Positions 709 through 53,846 of a DNA stretch of 54,445 nt are shown here, piece by piece (the stretch's first letter is position 1; every line of letters begins with the position of its first letter). The notes under the pieces are model-generated. The model saw nothing but the letters and a program-made list of their open reading frames with translations, was not told the origin of the DNA and did not search any database. Position numbers and translations under genes: made by a program. The stretch is taken from IMG/VR virus record IMGVR_UViG_3300011116_000620, positions 1-54,445 of that record; one strand, given 5' to 3'. The DNA comes from a virus (Duplodnaviria; Caudoviricetes).

Positions 709-3700
709 TCATTCAAAGATTTTTCCATAAGTCTCCTTTACTGGTGCTTCGCCTTTTGTCCTAGATACATTTCCGTCCACTTGATAGCCTATATCAATAA
801 GGTTCTCCTTGGTCAATTTATTCCAAGTATTCCTAGCCTTTTCTGATGCGCCCTTGATATAGCTGTAGGGAACCCAGCGTCCGTTAGGCTTGTTAAACCT
901 TTGCGATGCCCTGCCAAGAGCAGTCTTATCATCCACATCGATATGCACGACTCCGATGGTATATCCAAGTGCTTTCAGATTTTTTGCCATCTCGGATACC
1001 TTGGTTGAGTTCTGCCCAGTGATATCGATAAGCATATTATGGCGTTCCTGTGTGGCTCTTGGCATGATCATCTTTTCTGCGATGATGGCCGATTCATCAT
1101 GGAAAGCACCAGCGTTCCAACCTTGGAATCCGTGAGATTTTGATTTGATCGAATCTGGATCGATAACCGTTACCTGTTGACCGCCTAGAATCTTTTCTGC
1201 AAATGGACGACCAGTCGTTGTCTTTCCGCTGGCTGGAGATCCCATGAGGATAACCGCCACTGGATTGTCGGATTTTGCGTTTGGATTAAGTCCATCCTTG
1301 ACCTGCTGGTTGATCCATTCTTTGTGATGAGGCGTAGGATTCCGCAAGGTTTCAACTATATCCTTGCTCTGTTTATACCGAGAAGGATCACGAAGCGACC
1401 ATCTGGTAACGCTTGCGTCATCAAATGATATGCCCTCACGATCCGCTGTCTGTTGCCGTAGCCTGTGCATATCTGCGATGGCCTTTTTGGCTTTTGGCTC
1501 ATTTTCAAGCCTTTTGACCATTGAATCCACATCTTCGCCATCCTTGGATTCGCTTGTTTCGGAAACTTGTTTTGCCTTGGTTGATGCCTTGGCTGATTTG
1601 ATCCCACCGCCGCCTGACCATCTTCCCTTTTCATCCCTTGGTTGGTTTGGATCGTAAAATTCAATTTTTTCTCCGTTGTACTGAAAAACAAATGATTCAA
1701 TCGCAACCGATTCATCGAATTGGAATCCCTCGGAGCCGTCATCTGGTAGTTGAATCACGATGGGTACATATATCAACTGACTTCCCTCTGCCAACTCTTT
1801 TGTTGCTAGGGGCGATGGTTTGGGGCCATTCTCATAAACATACTTGCGGATTGCATCTACCTCGAAAATTTGCATTTTCTTGATGGCACTTGGGGCAACC
1901 CCGCCGTCCTTGGTAAAAATTTTAGACACAGCCGCCAACCCAGTCTTCCCCATCTTTTGCGCCTTGGTTGTTGGGATATTGTCGGCAACGCTTTTGAATC
2001 CTTCAGCCAAAACGCTGATAATCCCGATAAGCTGTTTGCCTCCGATCTTTGGGGCATTCCCAGAACGCAATACGCCGTACTCCATAGCCAGATCCAAGCT
2101 GTCGGTGCTGTACACCTTGCCACCACCCCAAACCCCGCTTTTAGATGGCTTTAAGCCCTCTTTTCGTATGGTTTTAAGGACATCTGCCGATGTTCCGTGA
2201 TAAAGAGTGGTAGCCTCTCCTGTCTTCTTGCTGGCTTCCGCTGGATTATCTTGCGCCCATCTTGGGGTGGGAGTCGCCCCCTTGGATATCCCTCCGCCAT
2301 CCGTCCATTTCCCAGACTGATCTCGCTTCTGACTAGGATCGTAAAAATTTGTTTCAAATTTTGAAATAGATGATTTTTTTATTACTTTTGCAAGTTTTTC
2401 TGGAAAGAAAATTTTATATACTATATGTCCTGCATCTGGAAGTTTTAATCCGTCAAATCCCCAGCTAATTAACTGATCGGTAACATATTTATCATATTCC
2501 TTCCACCCACCAAGCTTTAGTGAGCTTTCATCAATTATTCTTTCAACAATATCTCCATGTCCACTTGCCCCTACATCCTTCTTAACTATTGCATCTTTAT
2601 TCGTGGTAAGCCACATCCCACCATCAGCAGATTTTTTAACATCATATCCGTGTTTTTCGATTGCTTCTTTTGCTTCTTTTGTCGTTCCGTGATATGCAAC
2701 AACACTAGATCCAGATTCGCTCCACTTGCCAGACTCATCCCTTGGCTGGGATGGGTCATAGAAGTTTATCGCTTGATAGCTCCTGTAATAATTACGCCCT
2801 CGTCCTCGTTGTAGTCCGAGATGAACTCGATTCGGGAAAGATCGCTCGTAGTTGTCGATGACTCCTTTGTAGGCTTTTTTTCCTGCAATTCTTGTGTCTC
2901 CACCGATGAATTCACCGATGCCTCTGACTGCTTCTGATTTTCCATTTATTGCTCCTAGAAATTTGGCAACATTCGCCGTCAACTGCGATCCTTTGTCGAG
3001 GATTGTTACGCTGGTTTTGGCTCTGTCACCCACCATTGTTCTAAAACTGATTCCATTATCCGACAAGATTTTTCTGACTTGATCCATAGGCTTGTCTGCC
3101 GTGATCTTGTGCAGAATGTCGGGACCGTCCTTCTTTTTCTGGAAAGCCACGACTGCCTTCTGGTTCAACATGGCTCCAAGCTTGGATGCCGTATATGCAA
3201 GCTGTTCAAAATCCTTGATGCCTTTTACATCGATCTTTACGGAGTTCTCTGCTCCATCTTCCCAGTCCCCAATGGCAGATTCAATTTTCCCGCTAATTTT
3301 TTGCTTGTCGATCAGATCCTTGGCTATGCTGACTGCTCTGGCTTGCTCTGGAGATTTAAGCATCTTGCTTGCCTCTTCATAATTCATGTTCTCCCTGATA
3401 TTCGGAGACACCATGATTTGCCCGCCTTCCGAAGTCCATTTTCCAGATTGATCTCTGGCTTGTGAAGGATCGTAGGCAAATGTGGCTACCTCAAATATCT
3501 TTTTCCCTTCGATTTCTTCACGAATCGCAACTGCAATATTGTCTGCCAAGTAATCTGCAATATCATTAAAGTCTGGAGCCTTTTCTAAGGCAACCATATT
3601 TCCCTGTGCTGACATCGGCTGAATACCAATACTTTTTCTTACGATATTTGATATCTGCCTACCGCCATCAACCTTGTTGTATTCGGAAACTGCTCCACGA

Positions 3701-5010
3701 ATAAATCCTTTTAGTGCAGACCGCCCAGCGATAATGGCTCCCAATTCTGGATTAAACAACGATCCAATAAGAATTTTATACCTGTCACCATGAGCAGATT
3801 TTATAGCCTCAATCGTTCCCTTCGATCCTATGCTTACAATCCTTGCTACTCCATGAAGGAATTTCTGCCCATCGTCACTGGATAACCAATTTTTGATCTG
3901 ATAGGCCTTGGAAGCCCCATATTGACCCGCAACCCTAGCTCCACTGGCAATAGCAGTAATCCCCTTTATAGCCCCCTTTACGCTCGATTTTGCCATATCT
4001 AGGGCTGAGTTTTCTTTTTGAGCCTTCTCTATTAACTTGCTTTTGAAGTCACCGCCTTGGCTAGTCCACTTTCCAGACTCATCTCTAGCCTGTGAAGGAT
4101 CGTAAAGAAGTGTGGCTCCTTGTTCCTTTAGTGACAAAAGATCAGCTTTTAGCTGTTCCAAATTGGTCTTGTCGGTGATCGGGCCACCCACAATCCAAGC
4201 ATCGCAGGTTCTTAGCGAGGCACATTTGAAATCGAAGATTTCGCAGTAGCCAAGATCGCCAGCTTGTTCAACTTCCTGTGCGTCAGATCCAATTCCCTTG
4301 CTGATGCAGTCTGTGAGTTTGGTTGTCTGATTGAATCCAGCGCAGTTCCCGCAACGCATCGTCTTGGCTTCTTTGACCGATCCTCCGAAGATTTTTGCTT
4401 TCGCAGTCCAGTATTCTTCATTCGGCTCCTTGGGATTGGCTGGGCCGTAATGTGCTACATCAATAGCTTTTTGCCTGTTTGCTAGATTGGTTTTGATGTC
4501 CTGTGTTGCGAGTGGACACTTGTTTGAATCAAAATTTATTTTATTTTCTTTACTAGAATATTCCGTGATTTGATCTGGGCTAAATGCTATATATGAATCT
4601 CCTTCTCCTTCAAATTTGTTATTATAAACAACCCCATCGTATCCAGCATTTTGAATTGCGTTTCTTATTGCACTTGTAGATGCCGAGGCATGAAGCTTTG
4701 ACCCAATGGCCTTATTGACTTGCTCTACCACCTTTTCCCCATACCATGCACCCATATCTTTAAGTCTTAATGGTTTTTCTATTTTTACTTTATAAGCTTT
4801 TATTGTTCCTCCGTCTCCCACTCTCCAATCTGCCTGCTCTTTTGTTCCAAAATGAAATCCAATATCATTCCCAAGAAAAGCTGTACTAAATTTATCAAAA
4901 ATAGCTTTTGTTCCATGATACAAAATAGATGGAATAGATTCTTTTGAAGATGCACAAGTATTGCCCTCTTTAAATCCACCAGCCCCAGTTCCGCAGTCTT
5001 CAAGATTCAT
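709..5010 (-). CDS. Polyvalent head-module polyprotein: 3 ADP-ribosyltransferase-like modules, Cys-rich module, 2 unknown modules, C-terminal zeta-toxin-like P-loop kinase
   Basis: LYHGT..GFHFG..GYDGV; AYHGTT..GFDGL; LYHGTS..IRKEGLKP..VYST; MGSPASGKTT/IDPDSIK/IDITG; five YDPxQxRDxxGKW repeats; ATG at 5010 after extended -10 TGCTACAAT. Confidence 0.8.
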   Translation of the reverse strand: MNLEDCGTGAGGFKEGNTCASSKESIPSILYHGTKAIFDKFSTAFLGNDIGFHFGTKEQADWRVGDGGTIKAYKVKIEKPLRLKDMGAWYGEKVVEQVNKAIGSKLHASASTSAIRNAIQNAGYDGVVYNNKFEGEGDSYIAFSPDQITEYSSKENKINFDSNKCPLATQDIKTNLANRQKAIDVAHYGPANPKEPNEEYWTAKAKIFGGSVKEAKTMRCGNCAGFNQTTKLTDCISKGIGSDAQEVEQAGDLGYCEIFDFKCASLRTCDAWIVGGPITDKTNLEQLKADLLSLKEQGATLLYDPSQARDESGKWTSQGGDFKSKLIEKAQKENSALDMAKSSVKGAIKGITAIASGARVAGQYGASKAYQIKNWLSSDDGQKFLHGVARIVSIGSKGTIEAIKSAHGDRYKILIGSLFNPELGAIIAGRSALKGFIRGAVSEYNKVDGGRQISNIVRKSIGIQPMSAQGNMVALEKAPDFNDIADYLADNIAVAIREEIEGKKIFEVATFAYDPSQARDQSGKWTSEGGQIMVSPNIRENMNYEEASKMLKSPEQARAVSIAKDLIDKQKISGKIESAIGDWEDGAENSVKIDVKGIKDFEQLAYTASKLGAMLNQKAVVAFQKKKDGPDILHKITADKPMDQVRKILSDNGISFRTMVGDRAKTSVTILDKGSQLTANVAKFLGAINGKSEAVRGIGEFIGGDTRIAGKKAYKGVIDNYERSFPNRVHLGLQRGRGRNYYRSYQAINFYDPSQPRDESGKWSESGSSVVAYHGTTKEAKEAIEKHGYDVKKSADGGMWLTTNKDAIVKKDVGASGHGDIVERIIDESSLKLGGWKEYDKYVTDQLISWGFDGLKLPDAGHIVYKIFFPEKLAKVIKKSSISKFETNFYDPSQKRDQSGKWTDGGGISKGATPTPRWAQDNPAEASKKTGEATTLYHGTSADVLKTIRKEGLKPSKSGVWGGGKVYSTDSLDLAMEYGVLRSGNAPKIGGKQLIGIISVLAEGFKSVADNIPTTKAQKMGKTGLAAVSKIFTKDGGVAPSAIKKMQIFEVDAIRKYVYENGPKPSPLATKELAEGSQLIYVPIVIQLPDDGSEGFQFDESVAIESFVFQYNGEKIEFYDPNQPRDEKGRWSGGGGIKSAKASTKAKQVSETSESKDGEDVDSMVKRLENEPKAKKAIADMHRLRQQTADREGISFDDASVTRWSLRDPSRYKQSKDIVETLRNPTPHHKEWINQQVKDGLNPNAKSDNPVAVILMGSPASGKTTTGRPFAEKILGGQQVTVIDPDSIKSKSHGFQGWNAGAFHDESAIIAEKMIMPRATQERHNMLIDITGQNSTKVSEMAKNLKALGYTIGVVHIDVDDKTALGRASQRFNKPNGRWVPYSYIKGASEKARNTWNKLTKENLIDIGYQVDGNVSRTKGEAPVKETYGKIFE
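1615..1656 (-). repeat. Peptide repeat 5 YDPNQPRDEKGRWS
   Basis: Translated sequence. Confidence 0.95.
2302..2343 (-). repeat. Peptide repeat 4 YDPSQKRDQSGKWT
   Basis: Translated sequence. Confidence 0.95.
2719..2760 (-). repeat. Peptide repeat 3 YDPSQPRDESGKWS
   Basis: Translated sequence. Confidence 0.95.
3433..3474 (-). repeat. Peptide repeat 2 YDPSQARDQSGKWT
   Basis: Translated sequence; DNA nearly identical to repeat 1. Confidence 0.95.
4063..4104 (-). repeat. Peptide repeat 1 YDPSQARDESGKWT
   Basis: Translated sequence. Confidence 0.95.
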
Positions 5011-5043
5011 GCGCTTTGAATTGTAGCAAAGCGGATTCACTTG

Positions 5044-10218: not shown

Positions 10219-10742
10219 TTGAATTGCTCCGAAGCACTCATCACATTTGTTCCTATGGGATACAAAATTTTTTCCGAGTTGGTTTGGCAAATCACCTGCA
10301 TTGTGTGTTTGAGATCGTCAAAAGCCCAATTCATCAGCACATCATCCATCGCCATGTCTGTAAAAATGATGTCTCTTGCTGGACGCATCTTCCACAAGAA
10401 CTGGATTCCTGTGCGTATGACCGAGTACGACTCTGGAACCTGTGGAGCAATCCCGACCCACGACCTTATTCTGAATCTGGAAAGCTTGTAGATGATTTCC
10501 AACCCTGCCTGTTGACTCGATCCGCAGAACCATACTGGATGACCACGCTCGTTTAAAAACTTTTTATTCTGCTTTTCCTTGGCTGTATGGGGAGAGAAGA
10601 AAAACAGATGAGGATAAATCATGTGTTGAAAGCAATCCTCTGCCATAAAAGTTGCCGACCATGCGTGTCGGCTGGTTGGCTCCCCGCAACAGACTATCGC
10701 TACTTCGTCTGTTTTTCTCTTGGTTTTAGCCCAAAGACCCAT
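10215..10742 (-). CDS. Hypothetical protein
   Basis: 175-aa ORF overlapping both neighbours. Confidence 0.6.
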   Translation of the reverse strand: MGLWAKTKRKTDEVAIVCCGEPTSRHAWSATFMAEDCFQHMIYPHLFFFSPHTAKEKQNKKFLNERGHPVWFCGSSQQAGLEIIYKLSRFRIRSWVGIAPQVPESYSVIRTGIQFLWKMRPARDIIFTDMAMDDVLMNWAFDDLKHTMQVICQTNSEKILYPIGTNVMSASEQFK

Positions 10743-11331
10743 AGGTGCGATCCACGCAGTCCTTAATGATCTCGGCTGTTCCCTCCACTTTGTTGTATTC
10801 GCCTATCTTTTTGATTTTTCCGAGAAAGTCCTTTAGATTCTTTTTCTCAATATAAAGAGGGATCATTTCAATATCCACAAGGTCAGATTCCCCCTTTCCT
10901 CCGATTTCCTCTTCTGGCGGGGTTGCCAGCATCATCTTTTCTATCTCCTCATTTGAGAAGCCTGTAAGCTGAAGATCGATGTCTGTTTGATCTATTTCTT
11001 CGAGGAGGTCTTTGAGGGCTTGATTGTCGAATTCACCCGCAAGATTGTTGAGGGCGAGGTTGGCGACCTTCTCCTTTTCCTCTGGGAGATCGACTGCCCA
11101 CACATCGATTTCGTCCCGCCCCATAGCTTGATAAATCTTAAACCTTTGATGACCCCCGATGATCCTGTTTCCAGTCCGAACATTGATCGTGATGGGTTGG
11201 AGATCCCCCAAATCTGCAAGGCTTTTCGTGAGACGACCCATCGCCTCTGAAGTAATTTTTCTAGGATTGTAGCCAGCCCCTTGTATCTCACTTAACTTCA
11301 GCCTCAACAGCTTGGGGTATTGCGTCTTCAT
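10726..11331 (-). CDS. ParB/Srx N-terminal domain protein
   Basis: YNPRKI..LTKSL..G.LQPI..N..IIGGHQR..LALNN. Confidence 0.85.
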   Translation of the reverse strand: MKTQYPKLLRLKLSEIQGAGYNPRKITSEAMGRLTKSLADLGDLQPITINVRTGNRIIGGHQRFKIYQAMGRDEIDVWAVDLPEEKEKVANLALNNLAGEFDNQALKDLLEEIDQTDIDLQLTGFSNEEIEKMMLATPPEEEIGGKGESDLVDIEMIPLYIEKKNLKDFLGKIKKIGEYNKVEGTAEIIKDCVDRTYGSLG

Positions 11332-13675: not shown

Positions 13676-14326
13676 TTATTGTTTCTCCATGATATATCCA
13701 GCAAACTCTCCCATTCTGAAAAACTCCACTGCATTAGGGAATAATTCGCTTTGATCAACTGCCCTCTGCACCCCGCATAGGGATAGTTCTTTGTTGATTA
13801 TTTCTTCTGGGGTTACGCCATTCTCAAGCTTGTTGTTCATTGTCATTTTCCTTATGACTGAGCCAGCGTTTCCTCCTGTTGTCTGAATTTTTTCAAGCAT
13901 CACAATAGCCCCGCCATGCTTGCACTTCGCCATCAATGAGTCAAGAAAATTCACCCTAATTGATCTTTCGATAAACATGAAACTCAAAAAGAAAATCGCC
14001 AAGTCGAATGGTGCATAATCAATTTTTGTTGCGTCATCAATAATTAGCCTTCCAAACCCTCCATAATTTTTTGCAATCTCTTGGCTTTCCTCGATTGCTA
14101 TAAAGTTTATATTTCGTTCTGCGATAAGGCTTGTGATCGACTTTGATATATTTCCTGTGGATGCCCCTATGTCGTAAATGATCCCATTTTTAGGCACATA
14201 ATTTCTGCATATAAAGGCGACTGCCCTAGTTGCCATATCATACCAAGGCAGTTGCTCCCTTACATGAGCATCAAAGTTTTTAGCTATATCCTCGCTCTTA
14301 AATGACCATGACTCAATACCATTCAT
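13676..14326 (-). CDS. cmoA: CmoA-like carboxy-S-adenosylmethionine synthase
   Basis: WSF...IAKNFDAHVREQLPWYD, IYDIGASTG, FMFI..R, EK; SD AAGGAG; overlaps the MTase 3' end. Confidence 0.8.
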   Translation of the reverse strand: MNGIESWSFKSEDIAKNFDAHVREQLPWYDMATRAVAFICRNYVPKNGIIYDIGASTGNISKSITSLIAERNINFIAIEESQEIAKNYGGFGRLIIDDATKIDYAPFDLAIFFLSFMFIERSIRVNFLDSLMAKCKHGGAIVMLEKIQTTGGNAGSVIRKMTMNNKLENGVTPEEIINKELSLCGVQRAVDQSELFPNAVEFFRMGEFAGYIMEKQ

Positions 14327-15389
14327 GCCCAAATCTCCTTCCTATTGCCTCAATCACTGGAATCGTGACAGTTCTGCCACATCGCTCGTATCTTTCCGAA
14401 TCTGGGGCAATCGATCCATCTTCGTAATACTTGGTGAAATTATCTGGCAGTCCTTGAAGCCTTTCGCATTCCAATGGAGTAAGCTTTCTTATTTTGAATC
14501 CATCCAGTGATACTCCCATTTTGTTTTGTGGCGTTGCGTCCAGCCCCCAGATGTAATCTGATTCCCTGTTCCTGTCGATCATGTTGGATTTTGTGTGTGC
14601 CATATAGTGAATAAAAACAGCCCCCCTGCCTTGATTATTTTGAATCCCCTTCCAATAGTGTCCATCAATGGTTGGAAACACATCGACTGCCTTGGGATCT
14701 CTTCCTGTTACGAATGGAACATTGTTCCCACCAGTACCCATATGGGCTAGAAGAGTTGGGGATATTCCGTCTGAGAATGTTCTGAACTCGTTTTCTCGTC
14801 TGATGAACTGCAGGAATTTTCTTCCCTCGGTTTCTTGGACAACATTTTTTTCGCCTGTTTGTCCGATAGGAAATACTTTGGGTCTGGGTTTTCCTCTAAG
14901 ATTTGCGATAAGGAATACCCTTTCCCTGTGTTGCGGGACTCCGAAATTTTGGCTGTCAAGAAGTTCCCATTGAGAGTCATACCCCATCCCATCCAAGACT
15001 TCGAGTATGATTCCGAAGGTTCTTCCATTGTCGTGATTGAGGAGTCCTTTAACATTCTCAAAAAATATGTATGGTATTCCTTTATCCCTAGCCAGTCGAA
15101 ACATTTCAAAAGCGAGTGTGCCTCTGGTGTCTTCCAAAGAGAATCCCGCCCTTTTCCCTGCAATCGAAAAAGTGGCGCAAGGAAATCCTCCGCAAATGAA
15201 ATCTGCTTCTGGTAGGTCTTCGGCTCGAATAGTTCTAATGTCTCTTGAGTCTGGTTGTTCTCCGAAGTTTCTTGCATATATCCTCCTTGGTTTTTCAAGC
15301 CATTCATTAGCCCATACGCACTGATGACCAGTTAGTTCCAGCCCCAGCCGAAATCCTCCAATTCCAGCAAAAAGCTCAATAAACTTCAC
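14313..15389 (-). CDS. dcm: C5 cytosine DNA methyltransferase family, predicted carboxymethyltransferase variant
   Basis: FAGIGG (I), GGFPC (IV), ENV (VI), QHRER (VIII), RKLTPLECERLQG (IX), motif X reads CGRTV. Confidence 0.9.
   Translation of the reverse strand: MKFIELFAGIGGFRLGLELTGHQCVWANEWLEKPRRIYARNFGEQPDSRDIRTIRAEDLPEADFICGGFPCATFSIAGKRAGFSLEDTRGTLAFEMFRLARDKGIPYIFFENVKGLLNHDNGRTFGIILEVLDGMGYDSQWELLDSQNFGVPQHRERVFLIANLRGKPRPKVFPIGQTGEKNVVQETEGRKFLQFIRRENEFRTFSDGISPTLLAHMGTGGNNVPFVTGRDPKAVDVFPTIDGHYWKGIQNNQGRGAVFIHYMAHTKSNMIDRNRESDYIWGLDATPQNKMGVSLDGFKIRKLTPLECERLQGLPDNFTKYYEDGSIAPDSERYERCGRTVTIPVIEAIGRRFGHEWY
14747..15277 (-). CDS. Nested out-of-frame MTase partner polypeptide (beta-subunit-like), 176 aa
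   Basis: Own SD AAGGAGG at 15282-15288; WMGWGMTLNG..YSLSQILEENPDPKYFLS. Confidence 0.65.
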   Translation of the reverse strand: MQETSENNQTQETLELFEPKTYQKQISFAEDFLAPLFRLQGKGRDSLWKTPEAHSLLKCFDWLGIKEYHTYFLRMLKDSSITTMEEPSESYSKSWMGWGMTLNGNFLTAKISESRNTGKGYSLSQILEENPDPKYFLSDKQAKKMLSKKPREENSCSSSDEKTSSEHSQTEYPQLF

Positions 15390-16760: not shown

Positions 16761-17064
16761 TACTAGAATACTCTACATTATTCGAAGCGGTTTGGCAAGG
16801 ATTATTTTTGGCTGGAACCCATTCCCCATAAGTCTTGGAAAGCCCAAGTAACTGCTCTTTCTTGATCAAGGATGCTTGAATAATCCTTTTGGTTCCAATC
16901 CACGCTCCATCCCTGTCGGTCTGATGATAAACTTTTACGGGAACACCAAGAAGCGTGGAATTGGTGGGTGGTTTGGAAAAGAATGAAAACTTTCTGCCAT
17001 TGGCATCCTTGGCTGTAACTTTTACCAGCCCTCCTATCTGAATCAGGTCTTTCTGGTCATTCAT
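16753..17064 (-). CDS. Hypothetical early protein
   Basis: Directly behind a repeated promoter. Confidence 0.65.
   Translation of the reverse strand: MNDQKDLIQIGGLVKVTAKDANGRKFSFFSKPPTNSTLLGVPVKVYHQTDRDGAWIGTKRIIQASLIKKEQLLGLSKTYGEWVPAKNNPCQTASNNVEYSSNE
16770..16798 (-). promoter_or_regulatory. Repeated sigma70-type promoter TTGCCA-N17-TAGAGT
   Basis: Exact 17-bp spacer; A-rich UP element. Confidence 0.85.
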
Positions 17065-17074
17065 TACGCTAAGG

Positions 17075-17103
17075 AGTCTATACTATTCGAACCAGCTTGG
17101 CAA
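17075..17103 (-). promoter_or_regulatory. Repeated promoter TTGCCA-N17-TAGACT
   Basis: 17-bp spacer containing TTCGAAT. Confidence 0.85.
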
Positions 17104-18593: not shown

Positions 18594-18853
18594 TACGCTG
18601 ACCACTCTACAGGATTCGAACCTGCTTGGCAAGCTTTATTTTCATTTAATTTTGCCTCAAGCCGAATTAGGATGTGATCCCGCACCTGCTGGAAAGCGTG
18701 GGGAATATGACCCAGCTTATTGTGAAGGGACTCGATTGCTTGAGCGATAATCAAGTCCTCGCTGGTTCCAAAATGCTTGGCAAGGAGAACTGCGTTCTCG
18801 GTATGCAAGTTGTCATTTTCGTTTTGTTTGTATTTTGCATAGATGTTGTTCAT
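18593..18853 (-). CDS. Hypothetical early protein
   Basis: GAGG SD, ATG at 18853. Confidence 0.65.
   Translation of the reverse strand: MNNIYAKYKQNENDNLHTENAVLLAKHFGTSEDLIIAQAIESLHNKLGHIPHAFQQVRDHILIRLEAKLNENKACQAGSNPVEWSA
18604..18632 (-). promoter_or_regulatory. Repeated promoter TTGCCA-N17-TAGAGT
   Basis: 17-bp spacer AGCAGGTTCGAATCCTG. Confidence 0.85.
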
Positions 18854-18878: not shown

Positions 18879-18907
18879 ACTCTATCAGATGCTAAACTGA
18901 TTGGCAA
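18879..18907 (-). promoter_or_regulatory. Repeated promoter TTGCCA-N17-TAGAGT
   Basis: 17-bp spacer containing GCATCTG. Confidence 0.85.
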
Positions 18908-19140: not shown

Positions 19141-19169
19141 ACTCTACCAGATGCCTACCCGCTTGGCAA
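19141..19169 (-). promoter_or_regulatory. Repeated promoter TTGCCA-N17-TAGAGT
   Basis: 17-bp spacer containing GCATCTG. Confidence 0.85.
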
Positions 19170-43835: not shown

Positions 43836-44498
43836 TTAAAGCCTTATTATGTTTGCCCCTAGCGTATAGTCATCTTGATAATTGCCTGTTGGAATAAGAT
43901 CGTAAGACTCACGAACAGCCGAGGCGATTGCCGAGGGAGATGAATTTATGCCCAAAAAATTCCTAGCTCTTTGAATCAAAAACGGCATATAGGCAACAGA
44001 ACTGCAACTTATGGTTTTCAGTCCGTTGATATCAAGCTCTGGAGGACATAGAACAACCAGACAATCCTTCCCATACATTTCAACCGCCTTTTTTATCACC
44101 GCCATCGGGTCATGTCGAACAATCTGACTTATCCCAAAAGGCGCAACCAGATCGTACAATCCCATGTCTGGAGCCAGCCAAATATTATCAAGAACGATTT
44201 GTTGATCTACCGCATCTTGAAATTCCTTGCCAAAAACAAATTCTTCCCATCGTTTCCCGCTTGCCCTGTACTCTTCATACAGCAGAGGCCAAACCTCCCG
44301 ATTGAAAACAAAATCAAATGCCTCGTATGGATCTTCAATCTTTTTATGCTTAACATAGGTTGTGCATTTCAAAATATCCGCATATTCTTCCTTGCACTCA
44401 AACCAAACATCGTCTCCCCTGTCTGCCAAAAGCTTTGCGACTGGCAACATTCTTACCACATCTCCAAGCCTTTGATGATATTGAATTAAAACCTTCAC
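43836..44498 (-). CDS. Glycosyltransferase, GT9/heptosyltransferase-like
   Basis: RLGDVVRMLP; FLGINSSPSAIASA. Confidence 0.7.
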   Translation of the reverse strand: MKVLIQYHQRLGDVVRMLPVAKLLADRGDDVWFECKEEYADILKCTTYVKHKKIEDPYEAFDFVFNREVWPLLYEEYRASGKRWEEFVFGKEFQDAVDQQIVLDNIWLAPDMGLYDLVAPFGISQIVRHDPMAVIKKAVEMYGKDCLVVLCPPELDINGLKTISCSSVAYMPFLIQRARNFLGINSSPSAIASAVRESYDLIPTGNYQDDYTLGANIIRL

Positions 44499-46345
44499 CC
44501 AGCAAAGTATTCTGTCACTTTATGCTCCAAAGCTTTTTCTGTTTCGAGCAACTTAATTTTTCTGCCTTTTGTCTGTGACTTAACGGCAAGATCAGCGTTG
44601 CTTTTTGTGTAGGTGTCTGTTTCCTCATTGTCCATGCTTCCACGAAGTCTTGCTGGAACTCCACAACCTGTGCAAAAATGCTTGATTTGACCGCTGAAAT
44701 CCTTGATTGGTTTTTTCCACCATCCATCCACAACTGGATATCCGTTGTCGGTTCCCCTAGCCAAATCAAACGATGCGGCCACTTCGCAAAAATATGCCCG
44801 AAGCTCGCCCTTGTTTTGCACTATGGATGCCGACCATTCCCTGTTCACATCGCAACCAGCTATTTTTTCCCACATCTCTTTTTCTGGGTATAAGTCTTTT
44901 ACGGCAGTCAAAAGCGGGGCATGATGAGAATTTCCAACATAAAATCCTCCGTTAAAACCTCTTTTATTTACCATTACATCGTGAAGATCCTTCAGCTTGT
45001 CGTTTGCCCTTTCTTCATTATGAGGGTTAAGATTCAACGCTCCAAATGTCTTTTCGATTACTTCACGATGCTTGAAGTAATTGTTTGTCCACAATCCACG
45101 CTGAAATTGATTTGGTATTTCTTCCCTAAAAATCTGGCATAGCTCCTCAAACTTTGTATGAACACATGGATTTCCACCAATCATGGCGATGATGCCCTTG
45201 TAATCCTTTAGGCTTTTTAATGCCAACCTAAAGTTTTCTGGGGTCATTTCCCAAAGTGCGTCTTGGTTCTTCAGCAATCTTGTGCAGTTTGAACAAGCCA
45301 GATCGCATTTATTTGTCACGTCCACGCAAATAATGTGCATATTTTCTGGCCCACGCATTTTCCCAATCGCAATATCGGCATAAGACTGGCTCTCAAGATT
45401 CTCTGCTACTTTTTCCATAATGAAATCCTTTTCAAATATATGTCTGTCTTTTATTATGTTTTTCTGCTTTTCTGATATTTCATCAATGGATAGACGATGG
45501 ATGAAGTCAGTCAAGCCAAACAAATGCCTCTCCTCGGCAACATAACAATACTTATTCCAGTCAATTTTATTTCCAAATGGAAGCACATAATCATCGGAAA
45601 GCAATATGGGTATTGATCCGTTCAGCAGTGCCTCAACAAATCGGAAAGACCACCTTCCATATCCAGCAGGACACAGGGTGAATACCGATCTAGCCATAAG
45701 ATCGTGATAGGTGATTTCACCAAGCTTTTCCCTGACTTCATGCGGAGATCCAACAACAATTTTATCTCCTTCAAATCTGTTTTTGAACTCCAGCAGTCTG
45801 CCTCCACGGATATGCTCCTGTGGAAGATGAAGCTGAGTCATGCTTCCCATAAATGACAGCAGAATGTCTCTGTCGGCATTTTGTTTTTTTAATGGCTGAA
45901 CTTGATATGGAAGAATTGCTATGTCCTGACTGTGCAGGGTGGGCAAAGACTCAAGTGCTATCAGGATAAATCTGTCATCAAGCCATTTGTATTTTTTATC
46001 ATAAGCCCGAAACGGATTTGCCTCATGCGTCATTTCATGCTTTGATTCTGCCCTTTGACCAACATCACCAGTGGAAACTAAAATATGATTGCCCTTGTGC
46101 AGATAGGCACAATGATTTATGGCAAGCTCTGGATCTACATTTGCAAACTGTAACCCAGCCATAAAAAGAGGAACAAAAAAGAAGTTTGCCTCCTCTGGAT
46201 TTTGGGTTTCGTATTTTTTGAAAAAATTATAAAAATCAATCAAATATTGAAGATGCGGATGGAGTCTATTTAACTCGGCATAAAAAAGGTTTTTTTGCCA
46301 TATTTCATTCGACAATATAAGATCATGATAGATAAAAATTTTCAT
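44495..46345 (-). CDS. Exostosin (GT47) glycosyltransferase fused to a radical SAM domain
   Basis: PEEANFFFVP, SVFTLCPAG.G.WS.RFVEAL..GSIP..LSD..LPF..IDW; then VTNKCDLACSNC, GGNP, late CEVA and CTGC. Confidence 0.8.
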   Translation of the reverse strand: MKIFIYHDLILSNEIWQKNLFYAELNRLHPHLQYLIDFYNFFKKYETQNPEEANFFFVPLFMAGLQFANVDPELAINHCAYLHKGNHILVSTGDVGQRAESKHEMTHEANPFRAYDKKYKWLDDRFILIALESLPTLHSQDIAILPYQVQPLKKQNADRDILLSFMGSMTQLHLPQEHIRGGRLLEFKNRFEGDKIVVGSPHEVREKLGEITYHDLMARSVFTLCPAGYGRWSFRFVEALLNGSIPILLSDDYVLPFGNKIDWNKYCYVAEERHLFGLTDFIHRLSIDEISEKQKNIIKDRHIFEKDFIMEKVAENLESQSYADIAIGKMRGPENMHIICVDVTNKCDLACSNCTRLLKNQDALWEMTPENFRLALKSLKDYKGIIAMIGGNPCVHTKFEELCQIFREEIPNQFQRGLWTNNYFKHREVIEKTFGALNLNPHNEERANDKLKDLHDVMVNKRGFNGGFYVGNSHHAPLLTAVKDLYPEKEMWEKIAGCDVNREWSASIVQNKGELRAYFCEVAASFDLARGTDNGYPVVDGWWKKPIKDFSGQIKHFCTGCGVPARLRGSMDNEETDTYTKSNADLAVKSQTKGRKIKLLETEKALEHKVTEYFAG

Positions 46346-46890
46346 TTAATCTTTAGCCAGCAGTCTCTAATAATTTTGGGTGAAATAATAAGTTCATCCA
46401 CGGCTTGAATTACCCCATCGTGCATAGGAATGTAATCATGCCCAGCCAATATTCCCCCATGCTTTACTTTTGGCATCCAAGCAAGAATATCTGCTTTGAC
46501 GGATTCATACCTATGATCTGCGTCTATAAACACTGCATCCAAAGACTCGTTTTTATACATCTTTGAAGCTGAAACGCTGTCCGTTCTGATGGGATTTATC
46601 AAATTTATCAATGGCCGAAGATTATCTATAAATGTTCCAAAAAGAGAATTTTCCAATATATCGCTCATACCCTTGTGTTCCTCGGAGCCAGCCCAAGTAT
46701 CGACCACATCAATTCTCATTTTTTTGTGTTGTGCCTCCACGGCAAGATAGGATGTGCTTGCTCCCTTCCACGCCCCAACCTCAACAATATGACCGCCTTC
46801 TGGAATATGATCGATTATTTGTTGATACACATTTTGGTAATTAAACCATTTTTCGCCAAATTTTTCATTTCTCCAGAAGTGTTGTATCAC
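46342..46890 (-). CDS. Class I SAM methyltransferase (Methyltransf_24-like)
   Basis: VEVGAWKGAST, VDTW.GS, FIDADH.Y..V..D, GGILAGHDY. Confidence 0.85.
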   Translation of the reverse strand: MIQHFWRNEKFGEKWFNYQNVYQQIIDHIPEGGHIVEVGAWKGASTSYLAVEAQHKKMRIDVVDTWAGSEEHKGMSDILENSLFGTFIDNLRPLINLINPIRTDSVSASKMYKNESLDAVFIDADHRYESVKADILAWMPKVKHGGILAGHDYIPMHDGVIQAVDELIISPKIIRDCWLKIK

Positions 46891-48563
46891 TTATTGCGTT
46901 CCTCAAAAATCTTTTTTCCAGTCTCGTAGTTTGCCATTGAATTGTGAGTTCTAAAGACGGCATCTTTTTCTGCTCCAGTGAAAAAGGGATTTTGATGATT
47001 AAAAATCAGATCCTTTGCCTGTATTTGAATATCCTTTGTTCTAAGGGTAAATTCGTTGTCTCCGTAGATACCAGAAGATTGGGCATATTCTGGTGCGTAA
47101 AAGTGTCCCCCAAGATATTCGAGGGTTGGTTTGGTCATTATGCCAATGCAAAGCAGGTCATCCACCCTATGCCCATCCGAGACGGCAAGAACCGCTGGCT
47201 TGGTTGGATCTGGAAGTCTTTTGCGAATTTCATTGTCCCAGCCAACAGGAGGAACAAAATCATCTGATAGCTGAACAAGATACTTACCCTTTGCCTGCCT
47301 CATTGTTTCATTCCAAGCCCCAACGCATTTTCCATTTGGAACTATTACTTTTTCATATCCCCTGTATTTGTCATCATCAACATCGACCCCAAGAAGATGT
47401 TGAATTTTGTTTGGCTGGCTTGCCATTGAATACCATGCCCATCTTGCTTGCCAGAATTTTTCTGGACGTGCCGTGGCATGGCATAAGGTGATATCAATTT
47501 CACCAAAGTTTTTTAACTTATCCTGCTCAAGAAATTTCACCAGATCATTCATGCCCAATGCTCTGGCACACCGCATATAAAGGTCTGGAGCCTCAAAATC
47601 ATAGATGTGCTTTTTGGTAGTCCAATAAGTGACTTGTGGAAATGGAATCGAACAGGCCGATCTGGCAATAGACAATGCCTCGACATAATGTTTTCGGTTA
47701 AAATAATCCTCCGCAATATAAAACAAAGCCTCTATCCTTTGTGGCTGTAGGGCATATGCCTTAAAAAGCTCTTCCCTTTTTGCAACTGGGTCTTCAAGGC
47801 ATCTTCCGATAATTGTATGACATTGAACCCTTAAAATAATATCCAGCTTTGGATCGGCGATTGCCATTTTCGCCCAAGTAATCGCCTCGTTGTACTTTCC
47901 TGACAAAAAGTATTCTTCTGCCTTGTAAAATTCGTAAAGCCAAGATTCATTTGTTGCTTGATCCAGTATCATGTGATTGCGTTCAACACTTGATTTTTTA
48001 TGCCCGATTGGGGCATGAACAATCAGACCTCCGTGGGTTCCGATTGCCTTTGCATCTCCGTGAATAGGCTTTAGCTGTTCGTGAACCGCATACTTCCATT
48101 TGAATTTTCCCTTGCGGGTTATTCTTTCACGAACTGGACATAGGCCAGCCGCAGGAACTTCGTATCCAGCAAATATGCAATCGTGATCCGTGATCTTTGC
48201 CCCAATCTCAAAAAACACCCTTTCGGCTCCTTCAACCAAAAGGTCATCTGCATCAAACCACATGGCAAACTCGCTTGTACAGGCATTTAAAGCGCAATTT
48301 CGGGCATTTGCAAAGCTATCCAAATAATCCCACCCTAATGCCTCGTCAGCATTCCTATAGACAACAACCTTCGCTCCATGCTTTTTGGCTATTTCCTCAA
48401 GAATCGGCAGTCCTTCGTCCGTATGCTTTCCCATGGCCGAACAAAGCACAATTTCGTCTGGCTTCAGTTTTTTAAATGATTCCAAAGCCCTAGCAATATA
48501 TTTTGAGGCGCACTCTCTGGAAACAATGGCGTAAAGTGAAAAGGTGAAGGGGAATCTGTCCAT
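46887..48563 (-). CDS. Double glycosyltransferase (GT2-TPR-GT2)
   Basis: SFANARN..WFDADD..W...VHE; TPR-like middle; LSDDF..P..WD..GDNEFT. Confidence 0.8.
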   Translation of the reverse strand: MDRFPFTFSLYAIVSRECASKYIARALESFKKLKPDEIVLCSAMGKHTDEGLPILEEIAKKHGAKVVVYRNADEALGWDYLDSFANARNCALNACTSEFAMWFDADDLLVEGAERVFFEIGAKITDHDCIFAGYEVPAAGLCPVRERITRKGKFKWKYAVHEQLKPIHGDAKAIGTHGGLIVHAPIGHKKSSVERNHMILDQATNESWLYEFYKAEEYFLSGKYNEAITWAKMAIADPKLDIILRVQCHTIIGRCLEDPVAKREELFKAYALQPQRIEALFYIAEDYFNRKHYVEALSIARSACSIPFPQVTYWTTKKHIYDFEAPDLYMRCARALGMNDLVKFLEQDKLKNFGEIDITLCHATARPEKFWQARWAWYSMASQPNKIQHLLGVDVDDDKYRGYEKVIVPNGKCVGAWNETMRQAKGKYLVQLSDDFVPPVGWDNEIRKRLPDPTKPAVLAVSDGHRVDDLLCIGIMTKPTLEYLGGHFYAPEYAQSSGIYGDNEFTLRTKDIQIQAKDLIFNHQNPFFTGAEKDAVFRTHNSMANYETGKKIFEERNK

Positions 48564-53330: not shown

Positions 53331-53846
53331 TTACTCTACTATATCCGAAGTGGCTTGGCAAGCATTATTTTCAGTCTTGGGAATAAATTCCCAAGCATCC
53401 GTGATTCGCTGGCGGGGAGTGTTGCGTACATTGTCTAGGATAATTCCATCAACTACCGCAAAGGCATGACCGCTACGGCGACAATAGAATTTTCCAGTCG
53501 GATGATTTTTTATAAATTCTTCAATCGTGGTTGGTTGAAATGTTCTGACTCCGTCACCATGCCTGTCGATTATTTTGAAAAAGTTGATATCGCTTTTTTT
53601 GGCCTCTTCAAGCAGTCTTTCTGGATAAAACCCGCAACGCTTTTTACGACCAGCATCTCGCCCGATTTTGTGGGCAGTCGCATATTCGATTCCAGCCGAT
53701 AGTGCCAATGCTCGAATCGTGCAATCACGATATTCCTTAAATCGTGTCTTGCCCAACCCGCCGTCAGTCTTGACTTGCGGGATGCCATGCTTGTGACCCA
53801 CTGGATAGCTTTTTCCGTCAATTTGGATTCTGGTTTGTTCGCTCAT
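53331..53846 (-). CDS. Putative papain-like (Cys-His-Asp) protein
   Basis: DCTIRALA..GHAFAVVDG..LD. Confidence 0.5.
   Translation of the reverse strand: MSEQTRIQIDGKSYPVGHKHGIPQVKTDGGLGKTRFKEYRDCTIRALALSAGIEYATAHKIGRDAGRKKRCGFYPERLLEEAKKSDINFFKIIDRHGDGVRTFQPTTIEEFIKNHPTGKFYCRRSGHAFAVVDGIILDNVRNTPRQRITDAWEFIPKTENNACQATSDIVE
53333..53361 (-). promoter_or_regulatory. Repeated promoter TTGCCA-N17-TAGAGT
   Basis: 17-bp spacer containing TTCGGAT. Confidence 0.85.

Follow-up and report, generated by a model that had tools for sequence, protein, structure and literature searches.

A cytosine methyltransferase homolog paired with a CmoA-like gene

The genome analysed here, IMG/VR record IMGVR_UViG_3300011116_000620, is the complete genome of an uncultivated tailed phage, 54,445 bp long and with direct repeats at its termini; the whole stretch is referred to below as the window. 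Between positions 13676 and 15389 on its minus strand lies a C5 DNA methyltransferase (MTase) homolog followed by an overlapping CmoA-like gene. The pair is predicted from sequence to be the CmoA-CmoX system of this phage, i.e., a carboxy-S-adenosylmethionine (carboxy-SAM, Cx-SAM) synthase and a DNA carboxymethyltransferase. The MTase gene also contains a long, conserved nested open reading frame (ORF) in the +1 frame. The features of the gene pair are as follows.

14313..15389, minus strand: CmoX-like C5 DNA (carboxy)methyltransferase homolog, 358 aa; the GTG start abuts the stop of the upstream ORF
15174..15185, minus strand: motif IV F-P-C-A (residues 69-72), in which Ala takes the place of the usual Gln behind the putative catalytic Cys71
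14373..14375, minus strand: AGA codon of the motif X residue Arg339, which aligns with HhaI Asn304 and SpCmoX Arg350
14334..14340, minus strand: Shine-Dalgarno sequence AAGGAGA of the CmoA-like gene, read within the 3' end of the MTase gene
13676..14326, minus strand: CmoA-like predicted carboxy-SAM synthase, 216 aa from the ATG at 14326-14324 (218 aa if the TTG at 14332 is used)

A system of this kind has been published for Synechococcus phage S-B43 by Yang et al. (Nat Commun, December 2025; PMC12783734), and a natural phage enzyme of this type is on record, as a preliminary description of the window had suspected. According to that report, the S-B43 CmoA (SpCmoA) makes carboxy-SAM from S-adenosylmethionine (SAM) and prephenate, and its CmoX (SpCmoX) accepts carboxy-SAM only and writes 5-carboxymethylcytosine (5cxmC) at GC sites. 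In the 1.9 Å structure of SpCmoX (8YF3), Arg350 touches the carboxymethyl group, and the R350N mutant is inactive. The 5cxmC mark blocks HhaI, and a further enzyme, CmoY, joins glycine to its carboxyl group. Yang et al. (PMC12783734) also point out the parallel with the engineered M.MpeI N374K enzyme, and their census lists 5,615 candidate CmoX proteins, defined by an SPPC motif plus R350, with 4,257 CmoA, 2,251 ligase and 1,660 ParBc proteins as companions.

Motifs and predicted cofactor contacts of the MTase homolog

The MTase homolog is assigned to PF00145 (E 3.2e-72, residues 1-353) and TIGR00675 (E 1e-74). In a search of PDB sequences, its N-terminal 162 aa match M.HhaI (E 6.9e-50), and SpCmoX (8yf3) is matched with E 9.1e-13. 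Motif X reads RYERCGRTVTIPV. The HMMER alignment sets ERYERCGRTVTIPV of the window MTase opposite SQAYKQFGNSVVINV of M.HhaI, so that Arg339 falls opposite the Asn of the HhaI G-N-S-V motif, the residue numbered Asn304 by Yang et al. (PMC12783734). An alignment with SpCmoX and the MTase of Moraxella phage Mcat8 places R339 in the SpCmoX R350 column as well. The preliminary description had reported an Arg codon at 14373-14375 in place of the motif X Asn; the codon is AGA read on the minus strand, and both alignments agree with that placement.

The residues that contact Cx-SAM in the SpCmoX crystal structure have counterparts in the window MTase: F25, E47, F48, D69 and C98 correspond to F7, E29, W30, D50 and C71, with W30 as an aromatic residue in place of Phe48. 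Both proteins also have the motif X string E-R-x-G-R. The canonical motifs of 5-methylcytosine (5mC) MTases, G-N-(A/S)-V and P-C-Q, are replaced in the window MTase by G-R-T-V and P-C-A.

The CmoA-like protein

The ORF finder gave the CmoA-like ORF as 13676..14332 (minus strand), a 218-aa frame with a TTG start and a 20-nt overlap with the MTase ORF. The AAGGAGA sequence lies 7 nt ahead of the ATG at 14326-14324, which makes the 216-aa product likelier. From this start, the overlap that had been described for the two genes is 14 nt, up to the MTase stop (TGA, 14315-14313), and the two proteins are probably translated in a coupled manner from one shared transcript.

The best NCBIfam match of the CmoA-like protein is TIGR00740, the CmoA family (E about 1.4e-13 to 1.7e-13, 50.9 bits), and the best PDB sequence match is E. 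coli CmoA (4gek, E 6.7e-9). It also matches phrog_4752 (E 8.8e-43). A family-to-family comparison by hhalign relates the window type to the SpCmoA type with 99.9% probability (E 1.8e-31 over 199 columns). The AlphaFold2 (AF2) model has a predicted local distance difference test score (pLDDT) of 90.3 and is closest in fold to E. coli CmoA 4gek, with a template modelling score (TM) of 0.82-0.84; in sequence, the protein and that enzyme have in common the D-x-G-x-S motif for SAM binding and the Tyr of a P-x-Y near the N terminus. Unlike the tRNA cmo5U pathway of E. coli CmoA and CmoB, the window has no CmoB, and the predicted acceptor is DNA rather than tRNA.

Conservation of the Arg-type MTases and their linkage with CmoA

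Both G-R-T and GGFPC (a GGFPCATF-type motif IV) are present in all of the best 120 of 7,993 database matches, which share 58-94% identity with the window MTase; this conservation indicates that the motif X Arg is no chance substitution. We also compared the best 150 representatives (50% clustering) from a 1.84-billion-protein library. Arg occupies motif X in seven, all of which have PC-Ala, and Asn occupies it in 133, none of which has PC-Ala. One representative has Met with Gln after the catalytic Cys, one has Leu with Pro at that place, and in the other eight motif X is not covered, three of these having Ala after the catalytic Cys.

Two lineages with Arg at motif X, GFPC-A and SPPC, have E-R-x-G-R, as against K-x-x-G-N in Asn-type enzymes, and in both a small residue replaces the Gln after the catalytic Cys (PC-Ser in SpCmoX). 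The GFPC clade is thus marked by a three-residue signature of PC-Ala, Glu-Arg and Gly-Arg. The catalytic core of the window MTase shares 55-60% identity with ordinary Asn-type phage MTases. A search of 50,697 deposited phage records found no MTase more than 42% identical to the window enzyme.

A survey of co-occurrence between CmoA-like genes and Arg-type MTases had been suggested in the preliminary description. We collected 33 IMG/VR loci encoding relatives of the window MTase, 31 of which extend beyond the MTase gene; the two uninformative loci, L032 and L034, stop at the contig edge. In all 31 informative loci, a CmoA-like ORF follows directly downstream, its start only a few bases away from the MTase stop codon. 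The downstream gene is of the window type in 22 loci (36-61% identity) and closer to SpCmoA in nine (29-38% identity). One of these nine, from locus L022, has the bacterial K-R motif and the top TIGR00740 score of the scored phage CmoAs (126 bits). The control consisted of 79 loci encoding relatives of P0255, a nearby Asn-type representative, with Asn in 71/71 and PC-Gln in 73/73 of the loci covering the respective positions. None of the 79 has a CmoA-like gene within 3 kb of the MTase. Within the sampled loci, the association of the three-residue signature with CmoA is therefore complete, and the occurrence of three CmoA subtypes in one slot argues for one shared product.

Predicted function and alternative explanations

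We consider it likely that the window pair writes 5cxmC with carboxy-SAM of its own making. By homology, the CmoA-like enzyme would convert host SAM and prephenate to carboxy-SAM. Cys71 of the MTase homolog would attack C6 of cytosine, and Arg339 (in place of the motif X Asn) together with Ala72 (in place of Gln) would allow the enzyme to bind the carboxylate of carboxy-SAM, so that a carboxymethyl rather than a methyl group would be moved to C5, giving 5cxmC in the phage DNA. The assignment of this transfer step to Arg339 and Ala72 follows the SpCmoX crystal structure and the R350N mutant. The most likely role of 5cxmC would be protection from host restriction. The preliminary description had proposed this scheme in outline, and its predictions at the sequence level (among them the Arg position and the CmoA linkage) hold. 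That scheme is the published S-B43 mechanism, so the system as such is not new; the subtype is.

The carboxymethyl group is probably the final mark. Plain 5cxmC is predicted as the end product because the genome encodes no CmoY-type amide ligase: a Pfam scan of 73 window ORFs gave no Asn-synthase (PF00733), ATP-grasp or AMP-ligase family, and four tblastn queries against the genome (SpCmoY plus three further CmoY-like proteins) yielded no E below 0.69. It is conceivable that 5cxmC is instead an intermediate, the carboxyl group of which is modified further by a phage or host enzyme other than CmoY into another final hypermodification. Consistent with such an intermediate, the virion DNA of S-B43 is reported to hold the glycine amide only and no free 5cxmC (Yang et al.; PMC12783734), and many window ORFs have no family assignment. 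The closest syntenic relative of the window, locus L012 (MTase 72%, CmoA 61%, ParB 74% and small terminase 75% identical), also has an extra 282-aa gene of the Asn-synthase family directly upstream of its MTase (L012:3785-4633; PF00733 E 1.6e-11; 25% identity to SpCmoY, E 2e-17), precisely in the interval between the MTase gene and the counterpart of the ORF that precedes the MTase in the window. A ligase gene is present within 5 kb in just 1 of the 33 loci of the Arg-type clade, however, and ligases are also fewer than CmoX proteins in the published census (2,251 vs 5,615; PMC12783734). Together with the negative searches of the complete window genome, these counts make further modification of 5cxmC unlikely in this phage. 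The ligase is a module present in one relative and absent in the window phage, i.e., it varies by presence or absence between close relatives. Just ahead of the ligase-like gene, L012 also carries a cytidylyltransferase-like ORF (L012:3036-3548).

Several observations weigh against the prediction of a 5cxmC-writing pair. For the MTase, motif IV is G-F-P-C, and the literal S-P-P-C of the published census is absent; S-P-P-C is a criterion of that census rather than a demonstrated requirement for catalysis. The orientation of Arg339 towards the cofactor is predicted from alignment, and in the AF2 model the core has pLDDT >90 and the target-recognition domain (TRD, residues 178-300) pLDDT <50. For the CmoA-like protein, the score of 50.9 bits does not reach the TIGR00740 equivalog cut-off (193.3 bits), identity to SpCmoA is just 23%, and the fold match to two ordinary methyltransferases, CysG and BelI, is almost as good (TM 0.78-0.81). 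In addition, the Glu of the window K-E-L-S-L segment aligns with the K-R Arg of E. coli CmoA (SQKRSML). This Arg is presumably R199, and Arg199 of E. coli CmoA is described as salt-bridged to the Cx-SAM carboxylate (PMC3663124). At the genome level, some CpG palindromes are strongly avoided in the window as a whole (CGCG, 1 seen against 64 expected; CCGG, 6 against 103; ACGT, 13 against 98), which implies that the modification does not make the phage indifferent to all restriction at cytosine sites.

The low TIGR00740 score, the Glu and the fold similarity to CysG and BelI would also fit a CmoA-like protein that makes some other cofactor, or one that acts as an ordinary methyltransferase of small molecules or as a sink for SAM; the partner MTase of the Arg type would then transfer another group or bind a different acidic SAM analogue. 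Yang et al. (PMC12783734) raise SAM depletion as a possible side role. We regard this explanation as improbable. The same MTase clade pairs interchangeably, in one slot, with SpCmoA-type CmoAs and with one of the bacterial K-R type, and the hhalign comparison links the window family to the proven SpCmoA family. Experimentally active SpCmoA itself scores 115.6 bits against TIGR00740, likewise below 193.3, so the cut-off is no test of activity. The preliminary description had named the segment NKELSL as a reason to doubt synthase activity. Its alignment with the Arg region stands, and the doubt drawn from it is largely removed, since active SpCmoA has a matching K-E at this place (DKEKEL) and belongs to a related family by hhalign. 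The Glu is invariant or nearly so across 50 members of the window CmoA family. A conserved Arg follows it by 8 residues in the window type (Q187-R188) and by 4 in the SpCmoA type, and we infer that this later Arg may take over the role of Arg199. Moreover, CmoA catalysis is described as relying on a hydrophobic pocket that holds prephenate by the SAM methyl group rather than on a single catalytic residue (PMC10491745).

That the MTase is an ordinary orphan 5mC methyltransferase whose adjacency to CmoA is functionally meaningless would be in keeping with its similarity to Asn-type enzymes and M.HhaI, but is highly improbable given the linkage of 31/31 against 0/79, the invariant and correlated changes in the cofactor pocket (Arg, PC-Ala, Glu-Arg) and the reported failure of wild-type SpCmoX to use SAM (PMC12783734).

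Comparison with known systems

Like SpCmoA and SpCmoX, the window genes place a CmoA homolog beside a C5-MTase homolog in which Arg stands in the place of HhaI Asn304, and the MTase shares the cofactor-contact positions, the E-R-x-G-R motif X and a small residue after the catalytic Cys. As in S-B43, a ParB_N-domain protein is encoded nearby. The window MTase is only 30% identical to SpCmoX, however, with GFPC-A in place of SPPC-S, a core much closer to M.HhaI, and a TRD different from that of SpCmoX, which targets GC. The window CmoA belongs to another subfamily than SpCmoA. The gene order also differs from that in S-B43, with the MTase followed by an overlapping CmoA and no CmoY ligase, and the S-B43 MTase gene has no equivalent of the nested ORF (longest +1 ORF, 57 codons).

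The closest CmoA from a cultured phage is that of Moraxella phage Mcat8 (45% identity). The Mcat8 pair (AKI27362/AKI27361), annotated as 'hypothetical proteins', has its MTase and overlapping CmoA genes in the same order, directly ahead of the terminase. The Mcat8 MTase belongs to the SPPC/SpCmoX type, with only 25% identity to that of the window. The engineered DNA carboxymethyltransferase M.MpeI N374K likewise uses a basic residue at the motif X Asn for carboxy-SAM (PMC12783734), but this residue is an engineered Lys in a CpG-specific enzyme, and that of the window is a natural Arg. M.HhaI and Asn-type phage MTases, such as those of Streptococcus phage MM1 (orf13) and Lactococcus phage 4268 (orf14), are about 55% identical to the window MTase over motifs I-VIII and share GFPC, and the phage genes contain the same nested +1-frame ORF. 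They differ in PC-Gln and K-x-x-G-N, as opposed to PC-Ala and E-R-x-G-R in the window.

The kind of 5cxmC system found in the window has thus already been published, and what is new is the GFPC-A/R subtype, an undescribed branch with a HhaI-like core and a distinct TRD. Judged by its motif IV, this clade would be missed by the SPPC criterion of the published census, and at least one group of likely carboxymethyltransferases, a sizeable one, would lie outside the published CmoX definition (SPPC plus R350). Enzymes of new sequence specificity would be useful in carboxymethyl-based DNA labelling and sequencing chemistry.

Other contexts of CmoA-like genes

Window-type CmoA genes were also found in 80 loci of bacterial metagenome-assembled genomes and genomes (L043-L122), from Verrucomicrobiota, Alphaproteobacteria, Desulfovibrionaceae and others. 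Examples are L110:598-2765, L106:2529-4654, L095:1981-4642, L047:2033-4654 and L053:2031-3533. An SPPC-type Arg MTase lies upstream of CmoA in 44 of the 80 loci, and the other 36 have no C5 MTase match in the flank retrieved. In five of these 36 that were examined, CmoA follows an ORF of about 500 aa beside a gpA terminase, and this ORF has ParB_N (4/5) and/or Methyltransf_23-like (3/5) domains. A similar-looking arrangement of a ~500-aa ORF and CmoA occurs in Gordonia phage Evaa (gp2/gp5). The ~500-aa ParB_N/Methyltransf_23-like ORF is a candidate for a second class of transferase that uses Cx-SAM, a class which Yang et al. (PMC12783734) state they did not encounter.

In Staphylococcus phage vB-SscS-F1 and an SPbeta-like phage (L037:5491-6498 and L038:4684-5682), C5 MTases adjoin cmoA genes. 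Their motif IV is GSPC-Q and their motif X reads V-V-G-G-V-I, i.e., with Gly at the key position. A PP-loop ligase-like gene sits between MTase and cmoA in phage F1. Erwinia jumbo phage pEa_SNUABM_18 (L039:3965-6664) encodes a CmoA-like protein followed by a 348-aa unknown ORF and a PP-loop (CmoY-like) ORF; its CmoA-like gene has no adjacent C5 MTase.

A conserved ORF nested in the MTase gene

Within the part that codes for the catalytic domain, the MTase gene contains a long ORF of about 530 nt in the +1 frame, preceded by its own ribosome-binding sequence.

14747..15277, minus strand: nested +1-frame ORF, 176 aa, phrog_16143, from the conserved ATG at 15277-15275 (186 aa from the ATG at 15307)
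15282..15288, minus strand: internal Shine-Dalgarno sequence AAGGAGG, 4 nt before the nested ATG, formed from the frame-0 Arg-Arg codons AGG AGG

In all 26 Arg-type clade genes analysed, the +1 frame stays free of stops over 174-229 codons. When codons were shuffled synonymously in 20 genes, the observed +1 length was matched in only 0-22 of 500 trials per gene, and the +2 frame over the same stretch has 10.3 stops per gene. An AGGAG/GGAG-type purine run, judged by eye rather than by a scripted count, precedes the nested ATG in most of the 26 loci; the ATG is absent in L006, L022 and L033. Synonymous divergence in the MTase frame, relative to saturation, is 0.96 at codons 1-19, 0.60 at codons 20-213 and 0.96 at codons 214-358, and the boundaries of low divergence coincide with the limits of the nested ORF. 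The minimum, 0.14 at codons 161-180, is the site of the most conserved +1 peptide, YSLSQILEE.PDPKYFLS.

The nested ORF extends beyond the Arg-type clade. Its product matches phrog_16143 (E 1.5e-20), and by tblastn, 212 phage records have it beneath genes annotated as C5 MTases. The record of Streptococcus phage MM1 1998 lists it as 'C5 methyltransferase beta subunit' inside the 'alpha subunit'. In 26 genes tested from an independent Asn-type set, the open stretch of the +1 frame spans 127-276 codons, and in 41 distinct Asn-type genes the synonymous ratio is 0.16 at codons 161-180, with a mild drop (0.73-0.93) at codons 21-160. The nested ORF is absent from SPPC-type CmoX genes and staphylococcal MTases, in which the longest +1 ORF has 38-73 codons. 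The product gave no Pfam family above noise, no match to PDB sequences with a 41-member profile, and no in-frame similarity among 390 collected MTase and CmoA proteins. A full-text literature search gave no paper describing an ORF that overlaps a C5 MTase gene.

It is very likely that the nested frame is a functional overlapping element, and translation into a protein is the more probable form of that function. If translated, the nested ORF would encode an unrecognised partner or regulator of these MTases, and it would be a rare long overlapping gene in tailed phages and a new player in phage DNA modification. We consider the conserved overlapping frame the part of this locus most worth following, above the GFPC-A/R clade and the ligase polymorphism. 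We also considered whether the nested ORF is an ancestral in-frame target-recognition segment displaced by frameshifts. This was rejected because the conserved LSQILEE...KYFLS overlaps the frame-0 F-P motif instead of following it.

Origin of the Arg-type clade

We computed a maximum-likelihood tree on 213 conserved-core columns, leaving out the trait columns and the TRD. Its 47 rows were hand-picked: 30 of the 133 Asn-type representatives, 10 Arg-type sequences plus the query, and 6 others. The GFPC Arg clade forms a group with 100/99 support among the Asn-type enzymes, and the SPPC pair is placed elsewhere, on a branch of length 6.2. In the approximately unbiased (AU) test, a tree in which all Arg-type rows are held together is not rejected (p 0.567), and its log-likelihood is better by 2.49. 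An independent origin of the Arg-type clade is thus not demonstrated by this tree.

The Arg clade shares the nested gene and about 57% core identity with the Asn-type enzymes, and neither with SPPC CmoX, which may point to a second invention. We give even odds to the combined proposal that the nested ORF is a translated gene in HhaI-like phage C5 MTases and that the Arg clade is a second, independent invention of a carboxymethyltransferase. Representative P0249, nested inside the Arg-type clade in the tree, has Met at motif X with PC-Gln restored, and may be a reversion away from the carboxymethyl signature.

Genome context and other features

Nearly all genes of the window are on the minus strand, including those for the major head protein, tape measure, endolysin, Erf recombinase and small terminase. 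A ParB_N protein, a gpA-type large terminase, a lambda-type portal and a 1,443-aa polyvalent protein are also encoded. The MTase-CmoA pair is at the end of the early/middle region, directly upstream of the packaging genes. Two further features belong to this setting.

10726..11331, minus strand: ParB_N-domain protein between the small and large terminase genes (PF02195 E 4e-6; phrog_620 E 2.5e-36)
16770..16798, minus strand: nearest upstream copy of a promoter-like repeat, TTGCCA-N17-TAGAGT (6 matches against 0.29 expected)

ParB_N homologs are also found downstream of the gene pair in loci L007 and L012, and Yang et al. (PMC12783734) report ParBc proteins on many CmoX contigs. The small neighbouring ORFs of the gene pair show no conservation across the clade, L012 excepted. 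The promoter-like copy at 16770..16798 is a possible start of the transcript carrying the gene pair. The consensus of this element in the window is TTGCCAA..C.G.T.(C/G).AT....TAGAGT, and its other copies, all on the minus strand, are at 17075-17103, 18604-18632, 18879-18907, 19141-19169 and 53333-53361. Five of the six copies form a cluster that lies upstream of the MTase-CmoA pair as well as of small early ORFs.

For other palindromes, the window-wide ratio of observed to expected counts is 0.41 for GGCC and 0.48 for GCGC, and TCGA, GATC and AGCT occur about as expected. The 1,443-aa polyvalent protein (709-5040, minus strand) adjoins the portal gene; an ART-PolyVal ADP-ribosyltransferase domain forms its N-terminal part and a Zeta-toxin/AAA_33 kinase-like domain its C-terminal part. 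A three-ORF cluster (44495-48563, minus strand) situated between the head genes and the tail genes encodes a 616-aa protein with a GT47 exostosin-like domain fused with a radical-SAM domain, a 182-aa Methyltransf_24 protein, and a 558-aa GT2 glycosyltransferase with TPR.

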